Under the pieces are notes generated by a model. It was not told the origin of the DNA and did not search any database. It worked only from the letters and a program-made list of their open reading frames with translations. Position numbers and translations under genes: made by a program. Shown here in pieces: positions 5,075 to 39,959 of a DNA stretch of 64,000 nt; positions within the stretch are counted from its first letter, which is position 1, and each line of letters opens with the position of its first letter. Source of the DNA: Schmidtea polychroa. Its lineage: Eukaryota. The stretch lies in NCBI GenBank assembly GCA_044892525.1, contig CM097887.1, positions 87,150,397 to 87,214,396 on the forward strand, read 5' to 3'.

Positions 5075-6061
5075 TTAATAGAATTCGGTTGTTCGGGATC
5101 TCGTCTCGATGACGGCTCTGGTTTCAATGTTTGGGGAAGATTTGAAGTAGCTTGGTTGGTTCGTTGTTTGGACTAGCTGTTCTTCCATTGGGATACGAAT
5201 ACTTCTTGATTGTTCTTTTAGTTTGAGGGTTTTGTTTCTTCCTTTACTGGAATTGGGTTTGAGTGCAATCAGGCTCAGTACGGTGATGTTTATCATTAGG
5301 CTCGCCGCTAATAGGATCAATATTTTGAGGGATTCAGACTCTCTCGGTTCTATTACTTTGGGTTTGTTCATAATTTCTTTTAATTGGGTTGTATCCGCCG
5401 TTTCTGATTTTTCGGGCTTATTGAATTTGTTTTCTTCTGAGGTGACAACTTTCTTTATTGCTTCTAGGGTTTTAATCATCTTCTCGGAGTTCGTTGGGTT
5501 TTTGTTTATGGTAGTTAGGATTTCCCTTGTCATTTCTTTCAAGGTTTTCGTTACCTCGTTTTTAATGCTGGGTTCCTCTTTGATGATGGAAGTTATTTTT
5601 CCTTTCATTTCCTCCAAAGATTTTACTACTATTTCGCAATTGCTTGAACGTCCATAGGCGGTTGCTGTTACCTGTTGTTTTATTTCCTCTAATATTATTA
5701 CCACCATTCTCATTGCGGCTGGATCTGTTTGGGATTCTCTCTTTGATTTCTGACTTTGACATTGTTTGGCTAATGTTGCTATCTGGGTTCTGATAACTTT
5801 CATTTCTTGTTCTAACATTGTTTTTATTGTCTGAGTCATTTGCACTTCCGTTGATCCTTCAGTTGTTGGTGGACATTGCGAACATTGCAACTTGATTTGT
5901 TCGCATTCCTCATTGGGTTTTTCGCAGATTGATTTAAAGCTACTACATGTGCTATCTTCTCTACGGTATGGGTATTCTTTTTGGCATCTGATCATTGATT
6001 CTTCTGCTTGCAGGGTTCTTGGCAATGCCATTATAATCATCACCACAATTAGGCTTCTCAT
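5075..6061 (-). CDS. Type I membrane protein with one TACI/BCMA-like Cys-rich domain (TNFR-like)
   Basis: Signal peptide, CQKEYPYRREDSTCSSFKSIC...C, helical stalk, TM LKILILLAASLMINITVLSLIAL, tail containing PMEE. Confidence 0.6.
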   Translation of the reverse strand: MRSLIVVMIIMALPRTLQAEESMIRCQKEYPYRREDSTCSSFKSICEKPNEECEQIKLQCSQCPPTTEGSTEVQMTQTIKTMLEQEMKVIRTQIATLAKQCQSQKSKRESQTDPAAMRMVVIILEEIKQQVTATAYGRSSNCEIVVKSLEEMKGKITSIIKEEPSIKNEVTKTLKEMTREILTTINKNPTNSEKMIKTLEAIKKVVTSEENKFNKPEKSETADTTQLKEIMNKPKVIEPRESESLKILILLAASLMINITVLSLIALKPNSSKGRNKTLKLKEQSRSIRIPMEEQLVQTTNQPSYFKSSPNIETRAVIETRSRTTEFY

Positions 6062-6145
6062 CTTTACATATATATATATATATATACTTTAATAATAATT
6101 ACTTGGCTTTATTTACAATTTATTTACACGGTTAGTTTGTCTCAT

Positions 6146-6913
6146 TTATTGGGAGTCACCGACCTCATCCCTTAATTTTACGGGAGGTTCAGGTGCTCGT
6201 CTTTTGCTCAACTCGTTCATTCTTATTACTTCGAGTTGGGTTGCTATCAACTGTCTCTTTAGTTCTGGTATTTCTTGTAATTGCTTCTCCTTACTTTTCC
6301 ATTTTCTCTGTTTGATGGTCATTGTCGTCTGCAGTGTTTGCATGCTTCGTCGTTTTTGATTTAAAATTCTCCGGTAATTTTCTTTCAACTTCCAATGTTT
6401 TTCTGTTTCCTCTCTTTGTTCCTTGATCTCTTCCTTGAGTTTTACATTTCTCTTCTCGACTTTTTTACTTTCTCGCACTATTGTTTTTGCATAAGCATAT
6501 TGTGCTTCCAACTGTTCGATATAGACTTGGTCGATATTCACAATCTTTTTCAACTTCCTTGTTTCTGATTTCCAATAATCTTCGATTACTGCCTGAGCTC
6601 TCAACTCTACTATCTCTTGTCTCAGGTTTTTATTTTCTGTCTCTTTTCGTTTCGATTCATTTATTTCCCTCAAAATTTCTTGCTTGACAGTGTTTATCAA
6701 TCGTCTTGATTGAACCATTTGCTGTCTCAATCTCGTAATCTCTACATTTTGATTTGCAATTTTTGTTTTGAACAGATTCTTGCTGACTCTCCATTTATTA
6801 CTATAATATTTCATTGGTTCTTGTTTCATTGGTATCATATCTTGGCTTTGTTCCGGTTGGTCGTTTGACTTTCTTTCGTTACTCGTTGATTCTCTTTCTT
6901 TTAAATAATTCAT
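6146..6913 (-). CDS. Coiled-coil accessory protein (~255 aa)
   Basis: K/E/Q-rich heptads with W-K motifs; likely ATG at 6913, preceded by TTTTTGTAG-AT. Confidence 0.7.
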   Translation of the reverse strand: MNYLKERESTSNERKSNDQPEQSQDMIPMKQEPMKYYSNKWRVSKNLFKTKIANQNVEITRLRQQMVQSRRLINTVKQEILREINESKRKETENKNLRQEIVELRAQAVIEDYWKSETRKLKKIVNIDQVYIEQLEAQYAYAKTIVRESKKVEKRNVKLKEEIKEQREETEKHWKLKENYRRILNQKRRSMQTLQTTMTIKQRKWKSKEKQLQEIPELKRQLIATQLEVIRMNELSKRRAPEPPVKLRDEVGDSQ

Positions 6914-7052
6914 ATCTACAAAAATATACACATCATATTTCCTTTCGTCTTCTTTTTATTTTGAATTTTTGGTTTTTGTAATTTTTTATTTGGTTTTGGT
7001 TTTGGTTTTTTTTTTTTTTTTTTTTTTATTTACAGGCAACATCTCTCCTCGA

Positions 7053-8651
7053 CTAAATCCATGTTGCGTTATTTGGTTCGTTATTTTCTTCGAAGCCTTC
7101 ATCATTTGTGACTTCGGCAGGCTGTGGCACTTGCAACGGGAACGGGTAGAGCGGCATTAATAATATTGGTGGTTGTCTCCTTAACCGATCTACTTCCTCC
7201 CGCAATTCCGTTGAGATGTTTATTTCTTCATCCAACAAAAACGTTAATCTACTTTCGTTTTCTATCATTTCGTCTAATTCCTCTTTCAATCGTTGGGTCC
7301 TTTCCAGCGCTTTTAGCTTCTCGATTTCTGCTCTCAGATTCGCTTCGTTTTCTTCGAAGCATCGTTTTATTATTTCTGTTTCCTGTTTGGCCTGTTGAAT
7401 TGCCTTATCGCACTCCTCTCTACATTTCGCATTAAGCTCAATCTGATGCTTCCAATTCACATCCCTTTGGGTGTACATACCTTTATATCCGTTCATCTCT
7501 TGATTGGCTTCCTCCACTTCTGTTTGTAATTGTCGGATCTGTCGATCTTGCTCTGTCAATTGTTGTTCCCATCTCTTTTCCTGGTATTCATACCTTCTTA
7601 TCTCTCGAGTCTGTTTCTTTATGACTCTCCGTCTACCGTCGCTGGTCCGCGTCTTGATTCTATGTTCTCTACTCAATCGGCTGATCTCATCCTTTTGGTT
7701 TTCTATCGTTTCCCACATTTTAAATTCGTCTCTTTCTATCAGTTTCATTGGTAACTGTCTTAACTCCTCTTTGGTCTCTTTCCAATTCTTTTTCCATTTT
7801 CGGGCTTGATGCTTGAGACATGTTTCGGTTTCCTCAAATTTCTGCTGTCGTTTTCTCCACTCTACTTCTTCTTCTTCTCGCTGTGTAGCCCTGGTTTCGT
7901 AAAATTCTTGGTCTGCTTTTCGTAATCGCAGTTGTTCCTTGCTACTGATTTTCCAATAGAGCACTTGAGTTTGACTTCCTAGGTATTTATACTTCCATTT
8001 CTGAGCTTGTATTTTTATTTGTGTATTAATTCGTTCTAATACGTTATCTTTAACAATTGGTTCTCTATGCGGTGTTCTCCTCCCTTGCCCTCTGACTTCG
8101 TTTAGGGTCTTTTTGCATCTTTCCCATCTTTCTTTCATCATTGCGCATTTGCCCTTTACTTCTTCTAGTTCGGCCTTGTAATTTTGTATTTGATGTTCGT
8201 GACTATCATTCTGCCTCGTTTGGAGGGTTTCGTATTTTCGTTTCCATTGTTGCGCTTGTAGTTTTATTCGTTCCGTTTTACGCTGTTCCTCCTCGTATTG
8301 CTCCTTTGCTTCTCTAATTTGTGTCTTCTGCATTATTATCTCTCCGCATAACCTAACTATCTCCATAATTCGCTGAGTTCGTAAATTCGAGAGCTCTTCC
8401 TCCAATTCTTGGTATGTTGAGGTATTTCTCACATCCTCGGTTAATTCCTCTACCTGTTTCATCCACTTCTCTTTTGTTGCTAGTGCTTCCGCCTTCTCCA
8501 CTTCTAATTCTTGTTGCTTTTTCTCATACATGGTTTTGTACATATCTATTTCTCTCTTTACTCTTTCTGCTTCGTAGGCTTGTATGATGGATTTGTACTG
8601 TTCGAGTTGTTGCATCTCGGTTTCCACATAGGTTTGTGATTCTTTATTCAT
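7053..8651 (-). CDS. Coiled-coil accessory protein (532 aa)
   Basis: Long intact ORF; repeated QAxxWKxKY motif; Pro-rich C-terminus. Confidence 0.8.
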   Translation of the reverse strand: MNKESQTYVETEMQQLEQYKSIIQAYEAERVKREIDMYKTMYEKKQQELEVEKAEALATKEKWMKQVEELTEDVRNTSTYQELEEELSNLRTQRIMEIVRLCGEIIMQKTQIREAKEQYEEEQRKTERIKLQAQQWKRKYETLQTRQNDSHEHQIQNYKAELEEVKGKCAMMKERWERCKKTLNEVRGQGRRTPHREPIVKDNVLERINTQIKIQAQKWKYKYLGSQTQVLYWKISSKEQLRLRKADQEFYETRATQREEEEVEWRKRQQKFEETETCLKHQARKWKKNWKETKEELRQLPMKLIERDEFKMWETIENQKDEISRLSREHRIKTRTSDGRRRVIKKQTREIRRYEYQEKRWEQQLTEQDRQIRQLQTEVEEANQEMNGYKGMYTQRDVNWKHQIELNAKCREECDKAIQQAKQETEIIKRCFEENEANLRAEIEKLKALERTQRLKEELDEMIENESRLTFLLDEEINISTELREEVDRLRRQPPILLMPLYPFPLQVPQPAEVTNDEGFEENNEPNNATWI

Positions 8652-8733
8652 TGTCTAAATAATTACACTATTACTACCACTATTATTTCATACATTTATT
8701 ATCTACACTTTATACACGGAATTTTAGTTTTTG

Positions 8734-9912
8734 TTATTGATCGGCGTAGCGAAATCCTTTGATTCCCTGCGCAATCCTCTGTCTGCACATCGGACATTCC
8801 TTTACTTTTCTACTACACGTGGCGCATGCGATCAAATGTCCGCATGGCATATGAATAACTTCTACACTCCTCTCCCAACACATAGTACATTTGATATCTC
8901 GTAAGATAGCTGTTTTGACCATTGATTCTTCTTTTATTTTTGTTTCTGGTTTTTCCCTATACTGAGTTATCGCTCTGATCATATCGTACGTTGTTGTTGA
9001 TATATGTACGTTTTTCTGTAGTCTCTCTCTAATCATTTTCTTTACCCTTGTCGTGCCTATTCCGGCTGCTTTCAACGCTCTGCGCATATTGGGCTTGTCT
9101 ACAACTTCGTCAACCTCTTCTTCTGTTACCAGTACTTCTGGATATTCGGTTTCTTGTTCGCTGCGATATAGGCACCATACTTGATGTCTAATTTCTGGTA
9201 TGCCTTCTTCCGGTAATCTCTGTTGGCTTTCGCACCTTTCACACTTGAGTATTTGCTTTTCTGTCAGGTAGAATCCTCTTATTGCTAGTTCAGGTCCTCT
9301 CGTATCATCTCCGAACGTTTTCATTCTATTATCTGCTATTTGCGTGAGGAATTCCCCTTCACAAGTTGGAACATACTCATCAACGATTTTGGTTATCGCG
9401 ATGCTCATTTTCCCTCCTTTTTCGTCTTCAGTTTTCAATTTCTCCAAGGCTTCGTATTTGATTTCCGGTTTGTTGTGTACATCAAATCCCAGTACGAATA
9501 GACAAGTTGGAAATCGTTTACGATGTTCCTCCTTTGGGTGTTCTCCTTTTTTCCATTCTACTAATTTCCCTTTACAGAAACGACACGTTACTTGATCGGG
9601 TATCTCTGGTTTTCCGGAGAAGAAAAATCCGTCGCGTGCTAGCGCTCGGCTCTGTTCCTTGGTGAAAATGGTCTGATGTTCAAATGACAGATATCTCTGG
9701 TTCTCACATCTGAATTGCTCATTATCTCCCAGTTTCAAATTTTCATGTACCAAATTATAATCATTTCCCATTCTTCGATAATACGCGTAACTACTTGGTT
9801 TTGTTTTGCTGACTTCCGCATCCTTCACTCTTTCTCTAGGTGACGTATTGTCCTCTTCCTCTCTCATTGTGATCGTTTTCTTTCGGATATTCGGTCTCTC
9901 TTGATTAATCAT
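8734..9912 (-). CDS. Inhibitor of apoptosis (IAP)-like protein: BIR, degenerate BIR, UBA-like, RING
   Basis: BIR motif GFFF..DQVTCRFC..W...H...FPTC; second CxxC..H..C; C-terminal RING CTMC..PCGH..CATC..CPMC. Confidence 0.9.
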   Translation of the reverse strand: MINQERPNIRKKTITMREEEDNTSPRERVKDAEVSKTKPSSYAYYRRMGNDYNLVHENLKLGDNEQFRCENQRYLSFEHQTIFTKEQSRALARDGFFFSGKPEIPDQVTCRFCKGKLVEWKKGEHPKEEHRKRFPTCLFVLGFDVHNKPEIKYEALEKLKTEDEKGGKMSIAITKIVDEYVPTCEGEFLTQIADNRMKTFGDDTRGPELAIRGFYLTEKQILKCERCESQQRLPEEGIPEIRHQVWCLYRSEQETEYPEVLVTEEEVDEVVDKPNMRRALKAAGIGTTRVKKMIRERLQKNVHISTTTYDMIRAITQYREKPETKIKEESMVKTAILRDIKCTMCWERSVEVIHMPCGHLIACATCSRKVKECPMCRQRIAQGIKGFRYADQ

Positions 9913-10052
9913 CTATAATAAATTTCATCATTTCTTTTTGCATTTTCTTTTTCTAATTTTTATGGTTTTGGTAAGTTACTTTACTGTATACAATAACTTT
10001 ATATTTACTTTACATCGTTTTTACAAAATATTTACAGTTCCCTTCTATCCGT

Positions 10053-11477
10053 CTATCGTATTTCTATTGTTGGTCCTTCCTCGTCTAGTTCGATTAGGAA
10101 GAATATAGTGTCCTTTTCTATGTAGGACCCGTCATTAAACTGGTATAGCTGCATAAACTCTGCTACTCCTACCGCAGGATTAACCTCTGTAATCGGTTTA
10201 TTCCATGCTGGACTTGATGCTCGACAGCACATTATATGTGTCTTTTTTGATCCCAAGAGAGATATTTTTAATCTATGTCGGAATGGCCATGCTATTAGGT
10301 CGTCAAAATCTCCTTTACAGATTTGCATATATATGGCCATGCACCGATCTTTAAACTTTCCCTCACCATTTGGAAACCATCTCAATTTCATCTTTTATCC
10401 ATGTTTCTTGGCGTAGAATGGTTTGCTCACTATCGTTGTCTGGATTCCTTGCTTTGCTCGCTCCATTATTTCTGTTATTCCTTGGATTTTCCACATATAT
10501 GGCAATATTGGTAGTTCCTCTGTTGTCAGTTCCTTTGCAGTCCATTTGGTTTGTAGTTTAGTTACTTCGACTAATTTGTCGTCTAATTTCAACATCCTTT
10601 GTCTTACGGCTTCTCTCGTATTTTTGAAGCTTTCCTGTGAGCTCAGCATTTCTTTTATCATGATTTTATGTGATTTGAGTTCGTCTTTAACATCTTCGAT
10701 TGCCCTTGCTGTTAACTCTATTGCTCTCATCATCTTTTGCATGTGCTCGAATGTATTCTCCTCCACATGCTTCTTCATTTCTTCTGCTGGTAATTGTACT
10801 CTACAATCGAATGTTACCATTGGGCATTTTATCGTCTTTCTCGTGCATATCTCCCAATGTTCATTTAATCTGACGTTGTTAATTTCTCCACACTCGTTTG
10901 GGCATCTCCCTGTATATTCGTCGCAAATCCGTCTTTCTACTGCGTTTCGATGTTCCATTTCGATTTCTCTCCAATTAGCAGTTTCTCCGCAAAATTCGCA
11001 TTTTTCCGTTCGCGCTTCGCATTCCCCTTTATGTTTGGTTTTCTCTTTTCGTAAAAACTTTACCGTACATGCTTCGCATTCCAATTCTAGATATTCGCAT
11101 ACGTCTGTATGGGCTCTTAACTCCTTTACTCGACCTGTCCATTCGCATGACCTTTGGGTGCATCTTATTTTCACTTCTCTGATTTCTCGGTTCATTGCTC
11201 TATCCGGTATCGTGCCAGTGGGAACCAACTTAAATGCTTCTCCACATCCTGGACAAGTTTCTCGCTTTAGCTTGGCTAATCTTATAGCACACCCTCGGCA
11301 TAATCTACACCCGCATCGAGTTTGACTTGCTCCAATCAGTAGTCTTCTACATGCTGCATCGGCACATAATAGTCTCTCTTCGAACTCGTCCGGCTTGGCT
11401 TGATATTTTCTCATCAATTCATAGTTAATCTTTTGTTCCTCTGTTTCTCTCCGGTTCTCTTCCGCTTTGTTTTGCAT
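10053..11477 (-). pseudogene. TRAF-like adaptor/E3 (RING, TRAF Zn fingers, coiled coil, MATH) with one in-frame TAA at 10395-10397
   Basis: Reads PFYAKKHG*KMKLRWFPNG, where TRAFs have PFY...GYKM.LR..PNG; both halves are in the same frame; the MATH has the DDLIAWPF motif. Confidence 0.9.
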
Positions 11478-11566
11478 TCTACAATGATGACTTTTAATCT
11501 TGGGATTTCTACTTGGTTATAACTCTATTTATTTACAGGATTATTTACATTTCACTCCTTTCTCTC

Positions 11567-12022
11567 CTATACATCTACCGTCGAGTCCGGTTCCCCAGTT
11601 CCTGGTAGCCCGGTCATCCATTCGACTAAACTGGCAATATCATCATGTTGTCGATTTTCGTGTAACCTTCTAATTTCTTCCGCTTGCCATCTGATTTGGC
11701 TTATTAACTGATTGTTATTGTATTCTAGTTGCGCGATTATTTGGTGTTGTTCCTCTATTTTTGTAATATATATTGCATTTCTATTAATACTCTCTATCAA
11801 CGCCGTTTGGTTTCGTACCCAGTGCTCTTGAGTCTGATTTGTCAATTGGGTCATTAATTCACACTGTGCCCTCCACATGGATCCTGTTGGCTGACTCGGC
11901 TGGTTTGGCACGTTCATTTCCATCATGTCTACTGGATGTACATTCATAAGCGGCTGTTCTCTTACTTCAACAACATGTGGTATCCCATTTGGGTGTTCTT
12001 GCTCTTCGTTTCTCTGGTTCAT
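11567..12022 (-). CDS. 151-aa accessory ORF, Q/N-rich with coiled coil, unknown function
   Basis: ATG ORF with the same flanking motifs as its neighbours. Confidence 0.65.
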   Translation of the reverse strand: MNQRNEEQEHPNGIPHVVEVREQPLMNVHPVDMMEMNVPNQPSQPTGSMWRAQCELMTQLTNQTQEHWVRNQTALIESINRNAIYITKIEEQHQIIAQLEYNNNQLISQIRWQAEEIRRLHENRQHDDIASLVEWMTGLPGTGEPDSTVDV

Positions 12023-12170
12023 TCCTATTTATAATACATGGTCATCATACTTGTTTTTGATTTTTCTACATATTGTTTTAATTTACTACTTTTATTTTGT
12101 ACATATTACTACTATTATCACTACTTTTATCATTTCATTTATACATTATTTACAACAACTCCTCCTCTCG

Positions 12171-15100
12171 TTATACTAGTGTCGCCATGGGGCCGGAATG
12201 CAGCGTGCGCATTCCCCCATATCTTTCGTCCGTTAGTCGGTATATATCGACTTCGTGTGTCCATTCGTTAGGTGTGGGTATTTTTGGTAGTTCCGACATC
12301 CACAATCCGCTGGATTTGGGATCTCTTACCACCTCGTACTCTTCTAGATTCAGATTTTCTGTTGGAATACCGTATTCGAATTTTTCTACCTTGGGCCATT
12401 TTCTTCGGTTCCCGGGTTTTTGTTTACAGCTTTTGGTGGTTCTTATCCATTGGATCATTGCTAACGCTATTATCGTACTTACTATCGCGCTAGTTATCCA
12501 TATCATCTTTGTGATTATCGTTGTTCCATTATTTGCTTTTTCTGTCGTTAACATTATACTACCTGTGGTATTCGTTTCTGGTGCTTTGGTTTTCTTGAAA
12601 GCTTGATGTAGTCGTTCCTTCTCCTTCTCTGTTAGGTGACTGTGATTTTCTCGTTTCTCTCCCCCTTCTTGGTCTCGGGGTATCCATGGTATGTTTATTA
12701 ATTGGGCTTTTTGTCGAGTTATTGGTTGACATACGCTGGTTCCTCTTCCTTTCTTAAGGATACATACTTGGTATCGCTCTTTTCGTTTTCCTGTCTCCAT
12801 TTTAACGTCTGCACCTTGGTCTATCGGTGTTGTTGTACAGTCGATTATTCCCGTCTTATCCATTACACATATCCTTATGATTGGTTCTCCTTCTTGGTTT
12901 TTGACTGTAATTACCTCTTCACCTTTCTTGTTGAGGTTAATAGTTATCTGCACTTCCCGTCTTTCGTCTTTAATTACTTCGTTAATCCATGTTGTTGTTG
13001 TTATTAATTCGGTTTGATTTAGCTCTGTTGTTGTTTTTGTACTAACTGATTTCTTGGGCTTCTTGGTTGTTTTCTCCGTCAATGGACCTTGTTTAATTGC
13101 CATACTCCTTGGTTTGTCTTTTCTTGGTGCAGTTCTTGTTCCTTTACATACTATTATCCCTTGTGTTCCTGCGCATACCACAGTAGGGGTATTTGGTTTG
13201 ACCTCTCCCCAGAAGAATTTGTGATCCTGTGTCATATCAGTTACTATGCATATATCTCTGTCTTCTCTGATGCATACATGTGTAATTGATCGACTCCCTT
13301 TGTCCTCTATTTCGATATATTCTTCCAGAATGTTAAGTTGAAAATGTACTCCGGTTTCATTGGCTCTTTCTAGTTCCATTTCCTCTGTTGTTATGTCTAT
13401 ACAGATGTCATAATCTCCGCATAGCCCGGGGTCTCTTTTTTGGCTGCTAAAGATCTTTCCTTTTGTTATCGATCTGAAATCACAACTTACTCCTGTTCCT
13501 TCCATTAGTTGCACACATATTCCGACGGCGTTTCCGTCGTAATCGCTGACTTTTATCATAAATACTTCGCCTTCTTGGAAAGCTTCTCTTACGATTCTCA
13601 TATTTTTTGTTTCCGTTAAACAGATAGATGTTAATATTATAAATATTCTTTGTAGTAGGATTGGCTGGATTTGATTTCGAAACACTATGCTATGTAGTGG
13701 GGACTTTCGTTTTTTGTTTTCTGTTTTGTCGAATCCTTGATCTTCACCTCGACATTGGTCATCTTCGTCCTCTTCCAACTCCTCATCATCATCCGTTGTT
13801 TCTCCGCCCTCCGGATTTTGTTCTCTGTCGTTTTCCTCTGGGTTGTTATCGTTATCCCCCATCCTTTCGTCGTCGTCATCGTCGTCATTCCTCTCACCCG
13901 GGGTTTTCCCAAAAATGTCGTCCTCGACATTTGTCGCTTTGATCATCTCTTCGTATTTTTTAATTATTTCTTTTTTATCGTTGTGGATACTTTCTCGTTC
14001 TTCTTTGGTTCCTTGATATTTCCGTTGTTTCCGGTGCCATTCCCACACTAGTATTTCTAGTTGCTTTTTCATCGTATGTGCTTTTGTGCATTTCCACCAA
14101 TTACCTGTCAATTCTGCTCTATTTCTTTGTAATATTGCTTTAATGGTTTTTGGCATTGGTGGTCTTGAGTATATGGCGCTTCTTAGTACGATATTTTCGT
14201 TGTTCTGAAATTGATTTATATCAATTACTTCCGCTTTTAATTCGTTTTGTTTCCATTTGATTAACATTGCTGCGGTTCTGTCTAAGTTTCCTCTGATGGC
14301 TTCCAGAATTGTTTCAATGCTCTGTCTCAACACCTCAGCCTCTTCAGCGGTTGCATTTCCCGTGATAAAGTTTAGTATACTAGGTCTTTTTGACCTGACG
14401 GCATAACGTAAGATGGTTCGTTGTTTGTTATCTTTTTCTTTCAACGTGGATCCCGTTCTCAATAATTCTCTGAGTACTTCTCTTGACGCGCCTATTGCTA
14501 TGGCTTTCATCAGTGGAGTTTTTCCTTTACTGTTTTTGACGTTTGTTGATTGTTTGCAGTTTTCCATTATTCGTATAATCTCTAATGCTCGTTTTTCTTG
14601 TCCTGCTTTCACTGCATGATGGATTGGCCAGTTATTACTCAAATCACTTGTTAGGAACATGATTGGTAATCTCCGGATTAGTTCATATATTTGAGTCGGT
14701 ATTTGTAATCCTTCGGCATATCTTCGTCCTTTCGCATATCTTTCTGCTACTAACACTAGTTTGCCCAATACTTGGTATTTATTGGTTATATCGGCCCATT
14801 CTGGTACAATTTCTCGTGCTATTTTTACTGTCATATTCCATGTTGCTTGGCTCCTTGCCATTGCGTCAGCTTCGCTTTCTGCTTCGGTTCCTTTATGGGC
14901 GCTGCTGCTTGTTTCTCCCCTCAACATGAATATCCGTCTTGTCTGTGATCTAGTTAATCTACCGCTTACTTCTGGTTCCGTTGTGGCATTTGTTTGTGAT
15001 CTCGTGATTATCTTCCTTGTTTCTGGGTCTTTAGTGGCAGTTTTCGCTACTGCTTTACATCGACATGTATTAACGTAAATGGGTCTAATTAGTGGGTTGT

Positions 15101-25100: not shown

Positions 25101-25335
25101 TGATTCGTTGTTGTTGATTATTAGTCGGTATTCGCTGGATCATATCTTTTAATTGTTCGATTTCCTGCATGAGGTTGATTTGTGTGTTCCGTATTGGATT
25201 GTTTGATCCTGGTTGGTTTGGTTTGGCTCTCATCGTGCATTCTCTTGCCATGTGTCCAGGCTGGTTACAATTGTAGGCATCGTGGGACCTCTGCAGATGT
25301 TTTCCGTGTGGCCTCTTCTCCCACACTTTTGACAC
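16105..25335 (-). CDS. pol: 3076-aa polyprotein: Zn knuckle, coiled coils, UBLs, MATH, Bcl-2-like, Env, PR, RT, RNase H
   Basis: Uninterrupted ORF; IDTGA, YIDD, LATDASG...EREALA...TTDH...ADCMSR. Confidence 0.95.
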   Translation of the reverse strand: MSKVWEKRPHGKHLQRSHDAYNCNQPGHMARECTMRAKPNQPGSNNPIRNTQINLMQEIEQLKDMIQRIPTNNQQQRINMMQSTEEIRKQPSKQQQDQQRIEWQRLQNEEAREIQERWKQREANPGRINMMRLTNKEESHTAEQCVNNEGSDLIINQEIKITKEKEIDQRTELSSEEKIQLIKEFTQEEKEKRQKRDEGKDEPKSNEIVTKNRIQRVLLQKIEDRIKNENPTLTEEQIKEKVKEHWFRKNEWFEKKEPHTKAKINMLRQMRSDQTDQEDEKSEVSSLGGELFQSSEENNEPKTPPNSETPQSSDESENDDMKSMIEKDDEEIFEEIFDTVTEIERNESYINELTYRKCVKLITQVYQCEGGIITAAWKDLATKYKEKLKEAGPDQYQVSIQHPEIQIQTIELKGTNTDELYNWVQEKMGTSHKNKQLYVDGYKFKMGIHLVDAMIGPNETNILTLEKTRDDESVAEMFQKIQQVFNNEVEPELEKIERKIMKENQIILVKQAIDQARKYINRLRERWPQLMKQFVKDVRDTEIMRFEDKRATELISKYGEYERTKCERETIKIKVKLPNEEKQIIEVDPDCQVDELVQIIDQEIIQKARENSEDGMIEDVIIMYNRHMLERGDRTVIYELGIWEDGAVINIIAMDEPSGGHKNATKTEQQIKRFQWGMRAKMDRIIDIYNHWLKDDKLKVAAFNDEDCKLIPWKKVWIESEARWDWEQQKLEPNWIDNIPEEIAAVWVREKPIDTYQDILPQEFQNELQSGEDEDIREPVRLAPFTWKIENWMEKIKSAREEKITRLVSPPFYSGLGEYKMKLRIYPNGDGVGKGNYVSAFFIICKGNYDDKVPWPFSRKVTIAIEPLKDNLNVHKETMKPDPRSTCYQRPTTLENIASGTSKLIRLNYIENEQSIFVKDNAIQIRVEVETEQEMNQRLNIPENQPRICMMRRRVPDSGHLPIDADADEEEAATLLEAQKCKELMEILQNGAKNRRRAVVELAKWIAESCKRIQNLRKIVKAIEEYRRVYVWYPEQFGEIIRKWKQQEWAENSPEKYQLKIFLPDFEPMEKEFYTTAKVREVKKRIPYELPFHLQHEGRSLDDDIEIGVTPLQGEIVNRLTVSKIAGRELRRREIKHKSSTQQPGSLDTPEVPNAVSEVTIETTGEDEILDELQEIVEAGEIMRASQSGDLFIDEGEPTTDDLNGFVCAQRQPVETTEAETDLDNVGGSANKDVTTTDEWSNWRVDPRATTSKDTTYNPPKRKETGTAMDRRTRGRPKTDKAEVEPKSKIQAQMEQVKTKMDKLSALVKQVKVKTNVREQGTRWINDLFANMLALANPDVKRVMRKDHIPTEAKQLWAVLKPIIMKIMDNKIRLTLKDPVELRLIVEHLLSRSEDQNRYLVGLAYLMYNVIGQYKKRMPKYNATGYEFTVTEIIKRSIEPYILEQGGWRNFIESTGKKDQTEMMQAKLRDLLTEFEGTINMNDPRASRKGMNAIITTILIWMMCIKGTESFAVYDCDNIKIHEKYSLKDTEDCKAANPRKLQTVMASVSYNVYQEADFIKTMVQECTVTRKIFAHHCGSSSHSTIIEPGLESTVILLSRGECEEGFRSGRIHLRQGIEIAAEPGKIKTTRVYTAGRITKGDGTCETGTYTLNGQLVSGVVVIESYEAKLERYQGYFDPDTQAMKKYPSCLASDRSCSTGMSTLVYHADQKVCRLMLLKTAIFEEIQGKVYSEPKGEAEKRAMEELRARKGFREDVITSKLESEVTPTAIISKDDGIGMRFIKNKMVSKCDEMVISTNYKGIYLSRRTLANAVGRLSEKDVKLYLYANNKMDFLYHRGLTSTEKVYHDLLRNDCLLNKEILRTKLAMAITNPDNAIPLLPLQEGYFGRIVGEVMYTYQCKKIMARLPENPTIPRDKCANELEIIHEGKPRFVQAVTRVMNPVGFQPNLFNCSNAYGPMYEKEDGQWVQFPSKTIVVTPKKFGLTELTTELEFKPIDVSQSGLYTPKDLESARAHLLFPAQRQAILSNIVTISGGNNYGESPNYELLLSPSHYQQATANMMKAMCGRFLVFGQMMAGILGIILIIQIVRVILTQMLACFDIYKRERKVNWKLAIGFLPFLAKTMVLHGHSKDIHRIKRLLKILTQMKGTDEEVGRKFKVIMRLEAERTQEKAKRTGKWKKWMNLRRDDDSDDNDDFDDDDNNQGGVMLINKNTATWENEKMKPWGSPYLQAPTNGPMRRPGTMRERIRMGTGRLPVPNIYPMAYEPNWAALDPTMIKPVKNVGQEVETRTIAVLQTPAGPSLTITVEVNGIEMDAMIDTGANISAINMNMLPGRLWPCIEETTMDVITCSKQSIAVVGRVWSTIEYKGVKVTTYLAVIRQLSVSCIIGTDVMPELLKEIVIDLSSMKLKDKTGQICTMRTEVRCSEKMIIPARTQTICYVKVDNEAKGDMIFEPSQKFEKRRELPLAREIVSINEDNEIPINITNFDEEDKVIYENERLGKLTPMMNIELPEIKSEGADEKELWTIDSELLNEDEKEQLRQLLIEFKNIFAASDLDLGTSDVTQHIIPLTDETPITLRPYRLAEAQKTVAEEEVQKMLDAGVIEPSCSPWQFPVVMVKKKDGTQRFCIDYRRLNAVTKRDTYPLPDINEMLQMLHGAAYFTSLDLKSGYWQIKVKEEDREKTAFTIGKDLYQFKKMPFGLTNAAASFQRCMNFVTHGIKQCMVYIDDLLIYSGTFEQHLIDIRNVFVRLKQWKLKLKPSKCDWAKERVTFLGHIVSAKGKEPDPRNVEKIKNCPITKTVTQVQEFLGLCGYYRKFIKNYATIAKPIQELTKKDTPFLWDREQQIAFESLRDKLIASPILIHPDFKKPFLLATDASGYASGAVLGQWDEEKRERVIGYYSKTFKKHEKNYSVTEREALAIIQAIKHFKYLLWGHEIIITTDHQPLVWLGQHKEASSRLMRWAMQLQEYSPYIKFKSGKANANADCMSRFVFEELMDHDVRRICMIIAEDIDFTNLKNEQKEDSELKLIIEFLDKNDMKIFNNDDRLKEHMEKKSSKIYNRERMAIGNGWRQTTDVSTRK
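16380..17700 (-). other. Reverse transcriptase and RNase H
   Basis: RFCIDYRRLN, LDLKSGYWQ, MPFGL, YIDD, TDAS. Confidence 0.97.
18110..18450 (-). other. Aspartic protease
   Basis: AMIDTGANIS ... IIGTDVM. Confidence 0.92.
18960..20805 (-). other. env: Envelope fusion glycoprotein, chuvirus/Monjiviricetes-like (class III)
   Basis: Signal-like segment, then FAVYDC..YSL..C, many conserved-looking Cys, GYFGRIVGEVMYTYQC, SGLYT, C-terminal TM segments. Confidence 0.8.
20975..21440 (-). other. Bcl-2-like domain
   Basis: BH2-like IEPYILEQGGWRNFIE; weaker BH1-like LIVEHLL..DQNRYLVGLAYL; helical. Confidence 0.6.
22548..22985 (-). other. TRAF-type MATH domain
   Basis: FTWKIENW..SPPFYS..YKMKLRIYPNGDG..YVS.F..CKG.YDD.VPWPF. 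Confidence 0.9.
23380..24150 (-). other. Two ubiquitin-like domains (23380-23625 and 23940-24150); a weaker third at 21975-22168
   Basis: IKIKVKLPNEEKQIIEVDPDCQVDEL...IMYNRHMLE and TIELKGTNTDELYNWVQEKMG...QLYVDG follow the ubiquitin pattern. Confidence 0.55.
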
Positions 25336-26345
25336 ATCCTTGCTCTATAACATTCATTGCTCCAATGCCCTGATCGTTGGCATATGTTGCACGTTCGATT
25401 GTCGTTGTTCCTGAAATTATTAGTGAAATTTTGAATATTACCTCCATTGTCTTGGTTTCTCGTTTGTGGGGTTTTGAACAACTGTTGCGATCCTGGGATG
25501 AATTGATTCATTACTGGATTTGCATTATTGACTTGGTTGTTTGTGGTTGTTGTTGTTGTTGCTGGAGCTGCTGGAGCTGCTGTCATTGCTGCTACTTGTA
25601 TTGGTGTTAGGTAAGTTTCACATTTGTTGGCTATTTTTAGTGCTTCTTCTAGCGTCTCTGGTGCTCGACATCCCAAGGTTGCTCGTATATCTTCTCGTTT
25701 CATGCCATCTACGAATACGGCTATTATCTTGTCTTCCGGAACTGGCTGATTTGAATCGAAGGCTTCTCGTGCTAGTCGTCTCAATTCGCATGCGTACAGT
25801 GCGTTGGATTCGTTATATTTCTGCTTTCGATGCAGAAAGTCTAACATTTTTCGATTTCCCTCTTTTTCGGTACCGAATGTTTTTATTAAAAACTCCTTGA
25901 TCTCTTTCCACGTTCTCAACTTTGTTGCATCACATTTCGCCTCCAAGTATACATCTTGGGCGCTTCCCTTTAGATATAGGGGTATTCGTTCTCGTACGAC
26001 TATGTCTGGCCAGTGACATATCGTAATGTATACTTCAAATTCTTTTATAAATGTTTCTAGCTGGTTTATATTTCCATCGAATGGCTCTCCTCGAAATTTC
26101 TCTCTGAATTCTCCAATGTTGACGTGCACATTACTTGTTTCCGGTGGGTCCGTTACCCTTTGTTCATTCGTGTTTCCGTCCGACATTATCTCTTGGCACA
26201 GTACGGTTATCTCTGTTGTCTCGGATATATTTTCCTCTTCTTCAGTTGATTCGACGTCGCTTATTGGATCTAATTCGGTTCGTTTGAAATCGTCGCTGTT
26301 CTCAAATTCGTTAGTTAAACTGTCTGATTCAAATACTGTTTCCAC
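25230..26345 (-). CDS. gag: Gag (capsid plus two CCHC knuckles); true start uncertain
   Basis: PFDGN...FIKEFE...LYLKGSAQDVY capsid motif; CNICQRSGHWSNEC and CQKCGRRGHTENIC. Confidence 0.92.
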   Translation of the reverse strand: METVFESDSLTNEFENSDDFKRTELDPISDVESTEEEENISETTEITVLCQEIMSDGNTNEQRVTDPPETSNVHVNIGEFREKFRGEPFDGNINQLETFIKEFEVYITICHWPDIVVRERIPLYLKGSAQDVYLEAKCDATKLRTWKEIKEFLIKTFGTEKEGNRKMLDFLHRKQKYNESNALYACELRRLAREAFDSNQPVPEDKIIAVFVDGMKREDIRATLGCRAPETLEEALKIANKCETYLTPIQVAAMTAAPAAPATTTTTTNNQVNNANPVMNQFIPGSQQLFKTPQTRNQDNGGNIQNFTNNFRNNDNRTCNICQRSGHWSNECYRARMCQKCGRRGHTENICRGPTMPTIVTSLDTWQENAR

Positions 26346-27264
26346 TGATGCTTGTTTCTTGTGTAGTTTTCTGTTTTTCTTGGCTCTTTCTATCTCTTCC
26401 TTTTCTAATAAACTGAGGTTTCCTTTACTTTTTCGTCTGGTTCGGCTAGCTATATTATCAATTTTTCCTCCTTTTAATATCCTTTGATAAATTTTCTACT
26501 TCGTCGATCGAGCTTGATGTTTCTAATTATTGTCTTGCTTTACTCTTTGCGATTCTCTAATTCCTCTTGGGTTTGGTTTCTTTAATTCTTCGCTTTTGAT
26601 TGATTTCTTTATATCTCTTGCTTTCTATTACTTTCTCGATTTCTTTGATTTCTTTCTGAATTGTTTGCTTTATTCTAAAATAATTAACACCTCTAGTACA
26701 TATCATAAATTCTCTTTATTAAACCCTTCATTTACTTCCCATTTTCCCTTTATTTTACTGTTCCTTCGCTTCAAATTTCTAACTTTTCTACACTTCTCGT
26801 TATTCGCCCCATTTTGACTTTAAGTTGATTTTAAATTATCTATAACTCGTATCAATTATCTATATAGTCGTATCAATTATCTATCCCTTTTATAATCATC
26901 ATAGAAATATAATATCAATCACATAAATATCAAAATAAACATATCATTAATAAATAAAATTCAATAATTCAACTACTATCTATTCGTTCGCTTTTCCCCA
27001 TCCAAAGACTGGTCTCATTTTTACTTGCGCCGGCGCTCTATCATAATTTCCCTTTACTTATTACATATTTAACGCACTTAATCTATTTCAATTTAATCAA
27101 TTCCATAGTTAATCATCAATGCTTTGGTTCGCGCGACCTCTGCATCTACCTTTATTTACCATCGACTCCCTGACCGGTTCAATCAACTCTCCTATTTCAT
27201 TTAAATCATTTCACTCAATTACCATCGGCTCCCTGGCCGGTTTAATCAACTCATTTTAATCTCA

Positions 27265-27581: not shown

Positions 27582-27744
27582 TCGCGGTCTTCGGTCCCTG
27601 ACCGGTTTCAAATGCCCTAAATGAGGTTTCTTCAACCCCTCGACGCTTTCGGTTTTTACACCTACTATCGTCCCTACCGCGATTAAATTGAGTTGACAGT
27701 TGGCTTTCGGACTAATTAAAATTTAAGGCTCCTCCTACTCAAAT

Positions 27745-28260: not shown

Positions 28261-28994
28261 GGTGATCCAGTATCATCAGTCCCTTGGCTGATAATCTCCT
28301 GGACACTACAGTCCGGTGGTTAGCCGCTGTACTCGGGTGCCTCATCACTCGCTAGGGAAAAATCATTATTCCTCATCCGATTTGAAGTCCAAAAACGGTT
28401 TCTTCAAATCCGCAGCTGCTCTCGGATTAAATTTTTAACATTTAGCGCGCGTTTTTCGATTTTTATTTTATTTTCTATTTTTATTTACCCTTTTAGTCAA
28501 TCCCCGTTTCCCAGACAAAAAAATATAATAATCGCGTTTTTCGTCTCTCATAAGTGGTGATCAGTCACTCGACAGAAACTCCCCAACATTTGCGATGGAT
28601 CCTATCACATTCTCTTGTCAGGGTGATCAGGTTTTCCCCATCCGGGTAAGTGTCGTAAGGACGATGCACTTATCATCCCCTTATCCCATATCTCTCTATG
28701 CCAAAAATAATAACAGGAAGAAAAGAAAGTGGGAATAGAAATCGTACCGATCTTATAGATCAGCTCATTTATACGACTAAATCAGCCCCGTTTCCAACTT
28801 TACTTTTTGTTGTACTAACTGCTATGTTGCTTGTCTATTTATTTAACGTCTTTTGTGTCCTTTATATGTTTATGTTTCTCGTATGTTTTACACCTTTCGG
28901 TTGCTATAGGAGTTTTATCATAATTTATTATTTATTTTATCATTTCTTATTCATTCATAACTCGCTTCTTTATCATTTATTCACTCACATCTCC

Positions 28995-29477
28995 CTATGG
29001 GAGGTATACTACAACTCTTTTTCGAACGTTCGTATCGCATGCATTACATCGTTTTACTTTTTCTGCGCAATTCTCGCAGTAGCATAAATGGCCACAGGGT
29101 ATCATCATTACCCGTATTTCGTTGTTTCTACATATAAGGCATTTTCTAAAATCTTTAACTTGGTGTTCAATTGCTTCTCTGATTTCGTCTTCGATTGTTT
29201 CCATTTTTATCATTATCTCTTGCCATTTGATGTTAAACTTCGCATTATCCAATCGTAAATTTTGGATTTGGTAAACTCTTTCAGTAGTCAGTTCCGCATT
29301 GGGTGTTGCTATTCTCATCATAACACATACTTCCTCAGCTTGCGGTCTTGGTTTCAAGCTCAGTTCATCTTGGATTTTTAATAACTGGTCTGCTTTTCGA
29401 TTTAGTCGTTGTAGTGAATTGCTTGTCAAATTAACAAAGTTTTCGAGTTTCTTTACAATGTAGCCGGCTAATTCCAT
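28995..29477 (-). CDS. ORF upstream of gag: coiled coil plus IAP-type RING
   Basis: CLIC..MIPCGH..CENC..CNAC..VVVYLP at the C-terminus. Confidence 0.85.
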   Translation of the reverse strand: MELAGYIVKKLENFVNLTSNSLQRLNRKADQLLKIQDELSLKPRPQAEEVCVMMRIATPNAELTTERVYQIQNLRLDNAKFNIKWQEIMIKMETIEDEIREAIEHQVKDFRKCLICRNNEIRVMMIPCGHLCYCENCAEKVKRCNACDTNVRKRVVVYLP

Positions 29478-30188
29478 CTAATTACAATTTATTAATTTAA
29501 AATTTATTAATAACCCACATTATTTTTCCCATTTAATAATACTCTTATTATCCCTTTCCCCGGTGTCATGATTATTCATATTTTTGGATTTTATTCAGAT
29601 AATGTCGCCCTTGATTTGTTCTTCTGTGCGAATCCCTTGTCCATAATTTTAGTTATTTATTATATTCATTTTATTATATATAATCCATATCCCGTTATCC
29701 CATCATATTCCTCACGTTTTTTAAATTAACTTTGATTACATTATTCATTTATTTCATATTCGTTGGCGTGCTATCCCCCCTTTTTTCCCTATTTTTAAAT
29801 TTTTCTTATCTCATTTATTTACATTTTTTAATCATTGGTATTTACAATTTTATTATATTTTTGTTTTTTATTTCGTTTTTCATTTATAATCATTTCGCCT
29901 TAAGTCATTCATACAATATTCTAGTATCGGATTTCATTACCTTCTTATATTTGCTCAATTTGAAAACTTTCATCCATTACTTAAAAATTCAACATTCATT
30001 TACATCATATTAGTTTCTATTTATCAGACATTTATTTTCCTCATACTAGTTTCCACGTATCAGGCATTCATTTTCATCAAACCAGTATCTATACATAAGA
30101 TTGTTGTATTTTGAAACATAGTAAACTTTCCATTTGTGCTTCCCGATAACCTATTTTTGCCGTTTCTTTCATCAAAAAGATGTTTCCA

Positions 30189-30206
30189 ATCCCGGCTGAG
30201 CCCCCA
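30189..30206 (-). promoter_or_regulatory. Primer binding site, tRNA-Pro
   Basis: Minus strand TGGGGGCTCAGCCGGGAT is complementary to a tRNA-Pro 3' end (ATCCCGG..GAGCCCCCA) and lies 4 nt from the LTR CA. Confidence 0.9.
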
Positions 30207-30536
30207 AATTTGTATGGTGGGTTACAGGTACTGTAAATCTTTTTACCTCCTCATGCTGTTTCCAGCGTAACCCAGTATACAATTCATAGCTGACCACTTG
30301 AAACCCGTTGAGCAATCAACGTTGGTACTGTATCAAGGGTTTGGGCACTAGCAAAAAGTGAGCATGCTTAACATACTATAATTGTCTAGCACCCACTGGG
30401 GTTCACGGACTGCCGTTAGAAGGCCTATGTCCGATTTCTTTTCGTCCCCGTTACAACAATTAACATTATAATAAAAGGAAATCAAAATGCCCGCTATGGA
30501 CGCACTGTGAAGATTTATTTTGACAACATGAATCGC

Positions 30537-31001
30537 TTATCGTGTGCTGGTCGGTTCTCTTGGCGTAGCCTCTGATTCAGTAGCATGGAGAGCTAATTGG
30601 GCCTGGCTGGCCTGCCTTATCCTCGCTCGTGCCGCTTTTCCCGGCCGAATCTTCTTCCTTGGGGTTACTATTGTGGGGGCAGGTTCCTTTGGTCGATGGA
30701 GCAACTCATCTAAAGGCCGGATCTTGGCAATGACCTCTCACTCCAGCTCCTGTTGATGCACCTTGGCTCCCAGTTCCCTCACCCTTAAGCGGAGGGCCCG
30801 CAACTCAATCTGGTCTTGAGCATTCTGAAGTTGTAGTTGGGTGATTAACTTCATCTTCTTCTTCATCTCCGCTGGTGGGAACCAGGTACACTCGAAGTTC
30901 CGACAGTGGGCCTTGACTCGTGTCCACTTAGTCCGGTATTCGTCTACCTGTCGTTGTGCCTGTTCCCTATCGGCTCGTATCTCTTCCAAGAGTTTCTGCA
31001 C
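30537..31001 (-). pseudogene. Second LTR-encoded coiled-coil ORF, 155 codons with one internal TGA (30738-30740)
   Basis: The frame stays open for about 66 codons past the TGA (EVIAKIRPLDELLHRPKEPAP...); no ATG; preceded by CTTTGTTTAG; partial copy at 1-218. Confidence 0.4.
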
Positions 31002-31410
31002 TAAACAAAGGTAAGATCAATGATTTTTACATCGACATCGAGGGTCGGGCATTATTATGGGCATTAAGGCTAAAAGAAAGTAATCTCCTCGTCGTAGTCC
31101 TTCGCTATGCGCACCCCAAGACCGAGACCTAGTTGTCTTACTCAACCTATAGGGTTGTTGTCGCTATAGAAATGTGTATTCAACAATGATGATAGTCCAC
31201 GTCATGGACATTACAAACAATCCACACAATTAAATTGTCACCGACCATCAAGACACAAACAAACCTTAAATAATTATGATGAACTGTTAAGGCCTAACAT
31301 ATTTTATTCAATCCTGGATTAAAGAGGTTTAATCCAGTACATAATATCACCTAATACACCCGACACTAAGGTCAGCACAAAATGATTAGTTTTGATCCCG
31401 AGTTTTCCGC

Positions 31411-31893
31411 CTACTCTCCGAATCCCGCGCTCTCCTTGGTCGAGCGGGTGGACGTTCGCGCGCGTCCGCGTGTCCTTGGTCGTCCTGGTCCTCGTTGAGG
31501 CCGTCTTGGGTATTTTAATCCACGCTGAAGAGCCGCGGTCCGTTTCGGGTGACATTGGGCTCGAGCGTAGCCGTCGCAGTCTTCTACCTCGCCAGCCAGA
31601 GTCGCTTTCTCGAGCCGGTGTAATCGGTCTATCGCATCCGTCACTTCGTCAAAAGCGTCGATCAAGGCTAACGACGCGTGGTTGAGGTACGGCTCCACCT
31701 TCGGAATTACGGGGATCACGTTCTGGTAAGTCCAATCATGGATCTTGTACCAGATCCATCTAGACCTTAGGCGAGCGATTTCCGATTCTTCCCTCAATCG
31801 GACGGCTTCATCTGCCTCTTCGCCGCTACCTCCGCGGTTCCAGTCAGTCGACGAGTGACCTTCTCGTATCTTCTTTGGTTCGGTACTGAGCAT
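31411..31893 (-). CDS. LTR-encoded 160-aa ORF (5' LTR copy)
   Basis: Identical to 628-1110. Confidence 0.5.
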   Translation of the reverse strand: MLSTEPKKIREGHSSTDWNRGGSGEEADEAVRLREESEIARLRSRWIWYKIHDWTYQNVIPVIPKVEPYLNHASLALIDAFDEVTDAIDRLHRLEKATLAGEVEDCDGYARAQCHPKRTAALQRGLKYPRRPQRGPGRPRTRGRARTSTRSTKESAGFGE

Positions 31894-33409
31894 GGCTGTA
31901 ATGATAAAAGAGGTATTAGGCGAATCTTTGTCCCTCTATCTGTGGTCGTTTACTCCAACATGTCTAAACCCCCCATTACGATTTACATCCAAGCATACTA
32001 GGCATTCAATCCCATAGACCAATGATTTTGTATGTGAAGTAGATTAAATTACTAATTAATTTCCATATTGATTTATTTATCCGATTAGATCGCGGATTAC
32101 TAAATTAAATTAAATTTGTACATTGACGGTTGGTAAGTAAATTAAATTTAAGACAAAGAAAAATTAAAATTTCGTAAATTAAATTAAGACAAAAATTAGA
32201 ATTTCGTAAATTAAATCAGAATCGCATATTTCAAAGATTTTGTTTAATTTGATTAAAAATTAAATTTGTTATTCTTAATGTCTAATATTCTTCAAATTTT
32301 GGTTTAACGATAATATGCAATTACTATGCTACTAAGACCTACTACGAGGAGGGACATTACTACATATCGAGAAATTTTACTCGGTCTCTAGTAATACCTA
32401 ACCGTAAGGGTTGTGAGTAGCTCCACCATCATCCCAGTTGGATAAGTAAAAGGACAAAAAAAAATTGGTTAGTTTTCCATTTGTTTAATTTTAGGAATTC
32501 GATCCTTCCAGCTTTCAGTCTCAACGAGGGGTGTATTCGGATGAATTCTGCAACAGTCGTGGCCTAATAATAATCTAACGTATGCCAATTCCCCCATTTG
32601 TGACGCATTTGTGCCCCAGATTATGGGTAACCCCATTCTCGTGTTTATGGATATACATGTGGGGGAATACAGGACAAAATGTTAATCTGAAGAGGATTTA
32701 GTGAGGCTTTCTGCTCATTCCTCTGTCTACATCGTTGTTAAGCATTTTGCGGTGACTGATAATCTTTCCTGTCTATAAGTATTATAATTTTATTTAAAAA
32801 ATAAAAATTTTGTTCTTATTAAATTTAATTGAATAACTCGCTTTAACGTTATGTAATAATTTTTATATGTTTTTGTCAATTGTTTTCTCTTACATTTACA
32901 TAATCAACGATTGTAATCATAGGACCCATTACTACTCCTTACTTTTCGCCTATGATCATGAGGTATATGTGTCCTAGCTTGAATGGTCGATGTGTGGGAT
33001 CCATCTTGGGGAATAACAGGGTTAAATTCGCCAAGACATCGGGGTTTTAGTCAAGGATCAGGACTTCCGCTGTCGAGGCTGATGGTGATTGGTTCGTTTG
33101 CGAACACGCATGCATCGTCCATTTGGTCGGTCAGGGTAATTTCAGTGAGGGCACCCCTTAGTATTCAGGGTTACTTCTATAAATAGAACCAATTTTATTG
33201 GTTAGAGTTTTCATTAGGGAAAGAGCAATAATTGATGTCGGTTTTGAAGTTTTCTATTAATAGAAACATTTCAGAAAATCGATATATTGGTTGGAGTAAA
33301 TTATATAAGGAACAAAGGGGGGTAGGATCATTGTAACTAAATTTAGACCTAGAGGAATCCCAAAGATCGCTAATTAAATAAAAAAAATTTGTAATAATTA
33401 ATTAATAAC

Positions 33410-33762: not shown

Positions 33763-33795
<33 letters not shown>

Positions 33796-39863: not shown

Positions 39864-39959
39864 TTAACATTAATTTATTATTCAATTTTTCTCTTTATCG
39901 AATTAAATTTTATGTCAATTGTTAATAATAATATCTAAATAGTACTAAATAATAGTACT

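Follow-up and report, generated by a model that had tools for sequence, protein, structure and literature searches.

Complex retroviruses such as HIV and the foamy viruses use a single promoter and a single leader donor for many splice acceptors, each of which precedes a gene; the adenovirus major late unit does the same. A giant long terminal repeat (LTR) retroelement of the planarian Schmidtea polychroa appears to share this layout. The element, ~31 kb in size, fills part of the minus strand of a 64,000-nucleotide stretch of contig CM097887.1 (GenBank assembly GCA_044892525.1, positions 87,150,397 to 87,214,396; hereafter, the window) and, judged by its sequence, is a Burro-type Ty3/gypsy element. 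Its genes are probably expressed by cis-splicing of a single LTR leader onto many acceptors, as in complex retroviruses. It differs from the latter in being a Ty3/gypsy element, in its predicted introns of up to 29 kb, in a leader with a phase-1 micro-ORF (ORF, open reading frame), and in a donor that lies upstream of the primer-binding site; therefore, even the gag-env-pol mRNA would be spliced. A further likeness is the small Arg-rich ORF present in the element (for HIV Rev, see PMC3315495).

Giant planarian elements of the Burro/GYPSM1 type (PMC6431247) are longer than 30 kb, have LTRs and separate accessory ORFs, and occur in hundreds of copies; they encode Gag, MATH, an in-frame fusion glycoprotein, protease (PR), reverse transcriptase (RT), RNase H (RH), and integrase (IN), together with ankyrin and BIR cargo. 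The element in the window is alike in these respects: it exceeds 30 kb, has long LTRs and the order PR-RT-RH-IN, carries its fusion glycoprotein in frame upstream of pol, and bears MATH, BIR, and ankyrin cargo. According to Pfam, the polyprotein region contains Gag, MATH, a Monjiviricetes-type fusion glycoprotein, protease, RT, RNase H, integrase, and ankyrin domains, and the accessory ORFs contain RING, TRAF/MATH, and BIR plus RING; PF24664, PF22486, and RT lie within a single ORF, and PF00653 and PF12796 in other ORFs. A genome search with the 3' gene cluster gave 455 first-look candidates. For a dynein of the host, the top matches that carry a name come from flatworms (79-80%). Section 7 of PMC6431247, on Burro, is silent on how the accessory ORFs are expressed. 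A literature search found no account of Burro transcript splicing, though the main Burro papers were outside its reach, and it is no proof of absence.

Two other systems invite comparison. Cer1 of Caenorhabditis elegans is also a gypsy element with a cis-spliced subgenomic mRNA, and its full-length RNA must skip splice sites; it makes one spliced mRNA, with or without the spliced leader (SL) SL1, and an unspliced gag-pol mRNA (PMC3315495, in excerpt), whereas about 10 acceptors are predicted here. In SL2-type nematode operons and flatworm operons, genes on the same strand lie about 100 nt apart, with an acceptor before each start (PMC12582326 and PMC8629364, both in excerpt). The element resembles them in this spacing, but its spacers are rich in A, poly(A) hexamers are not enriched in them, and a conserved cis donor lies upstream.

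Candidate acceptors before the accessory genes

The first-pass annotation had noted an AG 0-3 nt before the ATG of every accessory ORF, and all eight contexts were recovered on the minus strand. The AG-to-ATG distance is 0, 2, 3, 0, 1, 2, 0, and 2 nt at 6061, 6913, 8651, 9912, 11477, 12022, 29477, and 31893, respectively, and seven of the eight sites are indeed YAG. The count of eight is qualified by the ORF starting at 31893, which sits within the LTR and has a second copy at 628-1110. The short gaps of ~80-150 nt described for the 3' cluster were likewise confirmed, the spacers being 148, 89, 140, 82, 139, and 84 nt long. Among background ATGs of the minus strand (four control sets of 211-453 ATGs), an AG lies within 0-3 nt in 16-36% and a YAG in 7-13%; first ATGs of chance ORFs have an AG in 68/468 cases and a YAG in 32/468. 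The chance of finding an AG at all eight sites is P = 5e-7 to 3e-4 and that of at least seven YAGs is P = 7e-8 to 4e-6 across the four control sets.

A host 3' splice-site model was built from 79 introns inferred from dynein genes, 73 of which were kept and six dropped for low alignment margin. These 73 introns end in TAG (43), CAG (17), AAG (12), or GAG (1); since AAG ends 12 of them, the single AAG among the eight sites is normal. Under this model, the eight AGs score higher than 569 further AGs in non-coding parts of the element (p 1.6e-5), and six of the eight are the best-scoring AG of their own spacer. In sibling copies, four of the cluster sites keep the AG in 95/95 instances, compared with 728/803 for other spacer AGs; the remaining two cluster sites are represented by one copy each. 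The AG at 31896 is retained in 23 of 24 LTRs (about 68-80% identity) despite variation in the two bases preceding the ATG, and the same acceptor is present in another type of LTR, whose ORF is ~40% identical.

A more distant comparison is provided by family G, whose accessory proteins are 25-34% identical to those of the window and which has no IAP gene. Here, an AG lies within 0-3 nt of the ATG in 6/7 genes and within 0-6 nt in 7/7 (backgrounds 28% and 41%, respectively), the 6-nt limit having been chosen after the data were seen and the counterpart of 5075-6061 having been paired by position and N-terminus rather than by tblastn. The offsets between AG and ATG differ among orthologs of the two families, which argues for retention of the acceptor with no constraint on its phase. 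Taken as splice acceptors, the AGs before the accessory genes are thus well supported by conservation and scoring, and, as in complex retroviruses, there are multiple conserved acceptors that precede genes.

A ninth acceptor is predicted at 26675, where a stretch free of ATGs begins that extends to the gag start codon (P about 5e-7); 26471 is a further candidate, lying in frame with gag. This pre-gag layout is shared by all 16 siblings with a matching gag start (20 fetched) and by 3/3 family G copies, in which the stretch is 579-580 nt long. The polyprotein mRNA is therefore probably spliced as well.

The predicted LTR leader and its donor

A promoter-like block with a splice donor sits about 650 nt inside the LTR (Table 1). 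The initiator-like start at about 35009 was placed with the standard initiator consensus. In 41 of 44 diverse LTR copies, the donor keeps its spacing from the TATA box although the sequence between the two diverges, and the base preceding it is A in 39 of these 41; all 30 nearest copies have the donor, though the two in the window score below those of the other 28. The leader contains an ATG (34989, in a weak context, with T at -3 in 39/40 copies), which is in phase 1 to the donor in 33 of the 40 copies with both ATG and donor, or in 27 of 34 distinct sequences. The distance from ATG to donor is mostly 37 or 40 nt, with 43, 49, and 55 nt also occurring, that is, in steps of three; five of the seven exceptional copies have stops. 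At the sequence level, the element thus has the single LTR promoter and major 5' donor of a complex retrovirus. In a genome search, 1334 first-look candidates hold the leader region.

The family G leader has a CCAAT box, a TATA box, an initiator-like site, a 22-nt first exon free of ATGs, and a CAG/GTAAAA donor (here and below, the slash marks the splice junction). In four family G LTRs (G3 of L187/L188, G1, G2, and L175), the first intron is 46-50 nt long and ends in a repeat of the 26-28 nt that precede the donor; this exon-copy tail is absent from the LTR of the window. Other donor candidates, at 33004, 32942, 32402, 32019, and 31141, were set aside as not common to LTR types. Downstream of the predicted leader, a conserved block at 33081-33307 contains several CCAAT boxes and a CTA(A/T)4TAG site and is possibly an enhancer or second promoter.

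Exon 2 of the LTR and the phase match

The candidate acceptor at 31001, which opens LTR exon 2 in phase 1, had been missed in the first-pass annotation. Conservation of exon 2 starts at a branch-like motif followed by YAG/TG, the AG/TG being present in 24/24 aligned LTRs, and the first codons past the junction vary synonymously. Among 52 distinct homologs, the exon starts with AG/TG in 47 and with AG/CG in one, and it is offset or decayed in four; 18 of these 47 lack an in-frame Met upstream of codon 32. Given this start and the missing early Met, exon 2 needs a phase-1 cis partner, one that ends one base into a codon. Phase 1 is the phase of the leader ATG. By contrast, an AUG placed at the junction itself opens merely 1-68 codons in the wrong frame. 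An AATAAA lies 17 nt behind the exon 2 stop. In family G, the homolog of exon 2 (E 5e-6) is a whole ORF with a complete AG/ATG, and its leader is free of ATGs; the leader ATG and the start of exon 2 thus appear to covary between the two families.

Boxes behind the stop codons

In the first-pass annotation, a 3' box behind the genes was taken as a sign of an operon. The box proves to be tied to the stop codon and not to the next AG: a TGTA begins 16-18 nt past all six internal stops (0.87 expected), and the full TGTANATA box (TGTA-N-ATA), at 12-20 nt from the stop codon, follows 5/6 stops in the window (0.08 expected) and 4/5 in family G (0.1 expected). It matches the consensus of the Pumilio response element, UGUANAUA, which PUF proteins bind in 3' untranslated regions. 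Lying just outside the footprint of a terminating ribosome, the TGTANATA box is likely a Pumilio-type mRNA control element and not a cleavage signal. The Rous sarcoma virus stability element protects RNA from decay; by analogy, the box possibly shields long 3' untranslated regions in the same manner.

Other functions for the box were considered and rejected. As a 5' splice donor it would be atypical, since its GT is preceded by T in 10/10 cases, compared with 10% of host donors. As a CFIm-plus-AAUAAA signal it is unsupported: AATAAA occurs within 60 nt of the stop in 4/6 cases (2.3 expected) and in 1/5 in family G (1.95 expected), poly(A) hexamers between cistrons are at chance level, and PMC5068929 reports no enrichment of UGUA ahead of the poly(A) sites of S. 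mediterranea. An operon needs cleavage between its genes, and reading the box as an mRNA-level element removes the main support for one.

Probable cis-splicing of one leader and its rivals

The DNA itself shows the acceptors and the donor, that both are conserved, and that the leader ATG matches exon 2 in phase. Together these features make cis-splicing of one LTR leader the probable mode of expression. Transcription would start near 35009, and the leader would be joined to 31896, 31001, 29478, 26675 (gag-env-pol), and the six cluster acceptors 23-29 kb distant, yielding one mRNA per gene as each acceptor is used in turn; the unspliced RNA would serve as the genome. At five of the eight genes, the leader ATG would be out of frame, and ribosomes would scan past it, because of its T at -3, to start at the gene's own ATG. 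Such starts after leaky scanning would account for the retention of each ATG directly after an AG. The first-pass annotation had offered two routes, a nematode-like operon resolved by SL trans-splicing and alternative cis-splicing from an LTR leader. Its acceptors stand, and the second route gains a conserved leader exon with donor and a phase match with the downstream exon 2; the first is not supported, given the upstream cis donor, the lack of hexamer enrichment, the tie of the 3' box to the stop codons, and the frame of an SL ending in AUG at exon 2, the only exon that tells the two routes apart.

Several points weigh against cis-splicing. Because the copies are related to one another, the p-values come out too strong. 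The eight sites are somewhat weaker than host acceptors (p 0.07), with 11479 and 31896 at just the 4th percentile, and the donor of the window is itself weak (10th percentile of host donors). The leader frame fits only 3/8 genes, as chance gives, and five need leaky scanning. Pairing over 23-29 kb is an extrapolation, the longest host intron sampled (in 10-20-kb stretches) being 7,064 nt, and the genomic RNA would have to escape 10 acceptors. Among the joints listed, no GT-AG joint at the acceptors was seen over 3118-16600 in contig sets X1, X3, X4, and X5 or over 26100-33590 in X2, X6, X5, and X1, all of which look DNA-like or shallow and none of which is on record as RNA; neither stretch contained both donor 34949 and the acceptors in transcript order, and this negative carries no weight in either direction. 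A-tails in set X5 at 4331, 29800, and 27912 all fall on genomic A-runs and were not used. A fossil junction between leader and exon was found in 0/52 leaders (fetched loci only). Finally, SL acceptors of parasitic flatworms are often also cis-spliced, on average 66% (PMC12582326, in excerpt), and SL addition is possible as a side route at the distal acceptors.

As a minor possibility, the leader of the distal genes may come in trans, either as the host SL or as the element's own 60-nt leader, made by its many solo LTRs. The host SL would act in an operon-like scheme: a polycistronic RNA would be cleaved in every spacer, at a poly(A) site, and the SL would be trans-spliced to the next AG. Planarians have SL trans-splicing, and the 82-148 nt spacers resemble those of Schistosoma mansoni operons (median 99 bp; PMC12582326, in excerpt); Cer1 takes SL1 on its spliced mRNA (PMC3315495, in excerpt), a long distance separates the cluster acceptors from the LTR donor, and, as in operons, a 3' splice site and a short spacer precede each downstream gene. 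This scheme is nevertheless unlikely, as AATAAA is not above chance after the stops in either the window family or family G, and the spacers are A-rich, with T at 0.19-0.41 and a length of only 58 nt in one family G case. In addition, by the criterion quoted in PMC8629364, an SL-resolved operon should have no upstream cis donor that could pair with the acceptor, whereas the LTR has a conserved one, and flatworm SLs end in ATG (PMC12582326 and PMC9851317, both in excerpt), which would be out of frame at exon 2 and at 4/8 sites. Delivery in trans by short RNAs of solo LTRs to full-length transcripts would fit the 1334 first-look candidates with the leader region, the finding that most of the diverged LTRs examined have no internal region behind them, and the siblings whose near-identical interiors are flanked by very different LTR types, all with the donor. 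It has no positive evidence, and cis-splicing is the simpler account of the same DNA; it is very unlikely, about as much so as the local introns considered next.

Each accessory gene might instead have its own promoter and a short 5' intron, each AG pairing with a local donor. Some spacers do have donor-like GTs 41-100 nt before the AG (for example, at 6102, 9979, and 10008), in or above the host short-intron range of 40-58 nt, and a GT site about 140 nt upstream of exon 2 recurs in many LTRs. However, spacers of 58-148 nt are cramped for promoters, no shared LTR-like TATA or initiator layout is apparent by eye, the 139-nt spacer before 6913 has a GT only beside the stop box and in its last 20 nt, and the GT inside the box has the unfavorable T described above. 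We regard such local introns as very unlikely. The least probable reading is that the AGs are unused, being products of chance or relics of gene capture; the contig sets, none on record as RNA, showed no junction among the joints listed, but the chance tests, the host-like scores, and retention across families at 25-34% protein identity and with changed offsets speak against it.

Architecture of the element

The coordinates of the features are given in Table 1. The 3' LTR, which extends past the window start into the neighboring locus L031, holds promoter, leader, and donor copies of its own (about 4066, 4045, and 3985, respectively). Established retroelement anatomy leads us to assign primer binding to the sequence at 30189..30206. 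The polyprotein region, in three ORF pieces here, is a single 4624-aa ORF in one family G copy, and the TRAF gene of the window is interrupted by a premature stop (pieces 10395-11477 and 10053-10391). Searches with the BIR region and with DNA returned solely siblings of 91-99% identity, and an IAP protein search gave one match, from a mollusc. Compact env-bearing elements had no comparable accessory cluster among ORFs of at least 90 aa.

Table 1. Positions of the predicted and observed features of the element, in order along the minus strand
Feature	Position	Strand	Basis
5' LTR, about 5.5 kb, TG...CA, with N stretches	30217..35682	-	ends common to other LTRs
TATA-like box GTATATATAC	35021..35030	-	GT kept in 40/42 aligned LTR copies
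Predicted leader exon (~60 nt), from initiator-like (T/C)AGTC	34950..35009	-	start placed by motifs
Conserved 5' splice donor GTAAGG	34944..34949	-	41/44 diverse LTR copies
Candidate acceptor AG of LTR ORF1	31896..31897	-	AG kept in 23/24 aligned LTRs
LTR ORF1, 160 aa, Arg-rich C-terminus, no Pfam match	31411..31893	-	ORF and Pfam
Candidate acceptor of exon 2, branch-like (C/T)T(A/G)AT ... YAG/TG	31001..31002	-	conservation
LTR exon 2, coding from the acceptor onward, stop-interrupted in this copy	30537..31000	-	homologs
Primer-binding-site-like sequence just inside the 5' LTR end	30189..30206	-	sequence; same motif behind family G LTRs
Candidate acceptor AG of RING ORF	29478..29479	-	kept in sibling contexts and family G
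RING-finger ORF, 160 aa	28995..29477	-	PF13920
Candidate ninth acceptor, start of 488-nt ATG-free stretch up to gag ATG	26675..26676	-	siblings, family G
gag - MATH - fusion glycoprotein - PR - RT - RH - IN - ankyrin polyprotein region	12171..26186	-	Pfam; three ORF pieces
Stop-anchored 3' boxes	6121..12154	-	TGTA and full TGTANATA counts
Candidate acceptor AG of ORF 11567-12022	12025..12026	-	host-model score, siblings
ORF, 151 aa	11567-12022	-	ORF
Candidate acceptor AG of TRAF-like gene	11479..11480	-	host-model score, siblings
TRAF-like gene	10053-11477	-	Pfam
Candidate acceptor AG of IAP-like gene	9913..9914	-	host-model score, siblings
IAP-like gene (BIR and RING)	8734-9912	-	Pfam
Candidate acceptor AG of ORF 7053-8651	8655..8656	-	host-model score, siblings
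ORF, 532 aa, no Pfam match	7053-8651	-	ORF and Pfam
Candidate acceptor AG of ORF 6146-6913	6916..6917	-	host-model score
ORF, 255 aa, no Pfam match	6146-6913	-	ORF and Pfam
Candidate acceptor AAG of ORF 5075-6061	6062..6063	-	host-model score
ORF, 328 aa, hydrophobic N-terminus	5075-6061	-	ORF
3' LTR, extending past the window start	1..4719	-	99.3-99.6% identical to 5' LTR

Most siblings (L199-L218) with 93-99% identity over the 3' cluster have different LTR middles, with an ORF1 only about 40% identical, and identity over 27367-30011 is only 82-86%, which suggests that recombination inside one family exchanges LTR and leader. LTR types whose middles cannot be aligned still share the final ~240 nt of the LTR (30215-30450) as a conserved stretch, possibly a structured RNA or priming element. 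The tail of LTR ORF1 is Arg-rich; in a sibling LTR type (locus L200), it ends in the AT-hook-like KRGRPRK. A purine-rich tract was not seen before the 3' LTR (4733-4775), where instead a motif CGCAATTTTA...GGGCCCC... occurs that is common to family G (locus L175). A non-coding 132-nt tandem repeat lies between the RING gene and gag (27265-27581). In family G derivatives with internal deletions (L164/L175 and L193/L194), the LTR start is fused shortly upstream of the last three accessory genes, at points other than the acceptor. Outside the element, decayed ORFs at 38533-45652 and 48065-49141 are, by eye, Polinton/Maverick-like together with a hAT-like transposase fragment.

Implications for planarian biology

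Burro elements carry regulators of apoptosis and ubiquitin, and one of them, B-IAP, has been reported to support planarian stem cells (cited in PMC13465017). Burro RNA goes up on knockdown of piwi (PMC8532177). How genes 20-29 kb behind a huge polyprotein are expressed is a practical question. The present analysis offers a predicted start site, one donor, and ten candidate acceptors, which are directly testable in public planarian RNA-seq. If the distal genes received their leader in trans, the retroelement would express an operon-like cassette by trans-splicing, and stop-anchored Pumilio elements would tune each mRNA. If cis-splicing of one leader is true, the design of complex retroviruses, with one leader and many acceptors, would have arisen independently, and on a larger scale, in a Ty3/gypsy lineage; a micro-ORF in the leader would complete a start codon across an intron, and solo LTRs would be able to make two spliced proteins of their own.

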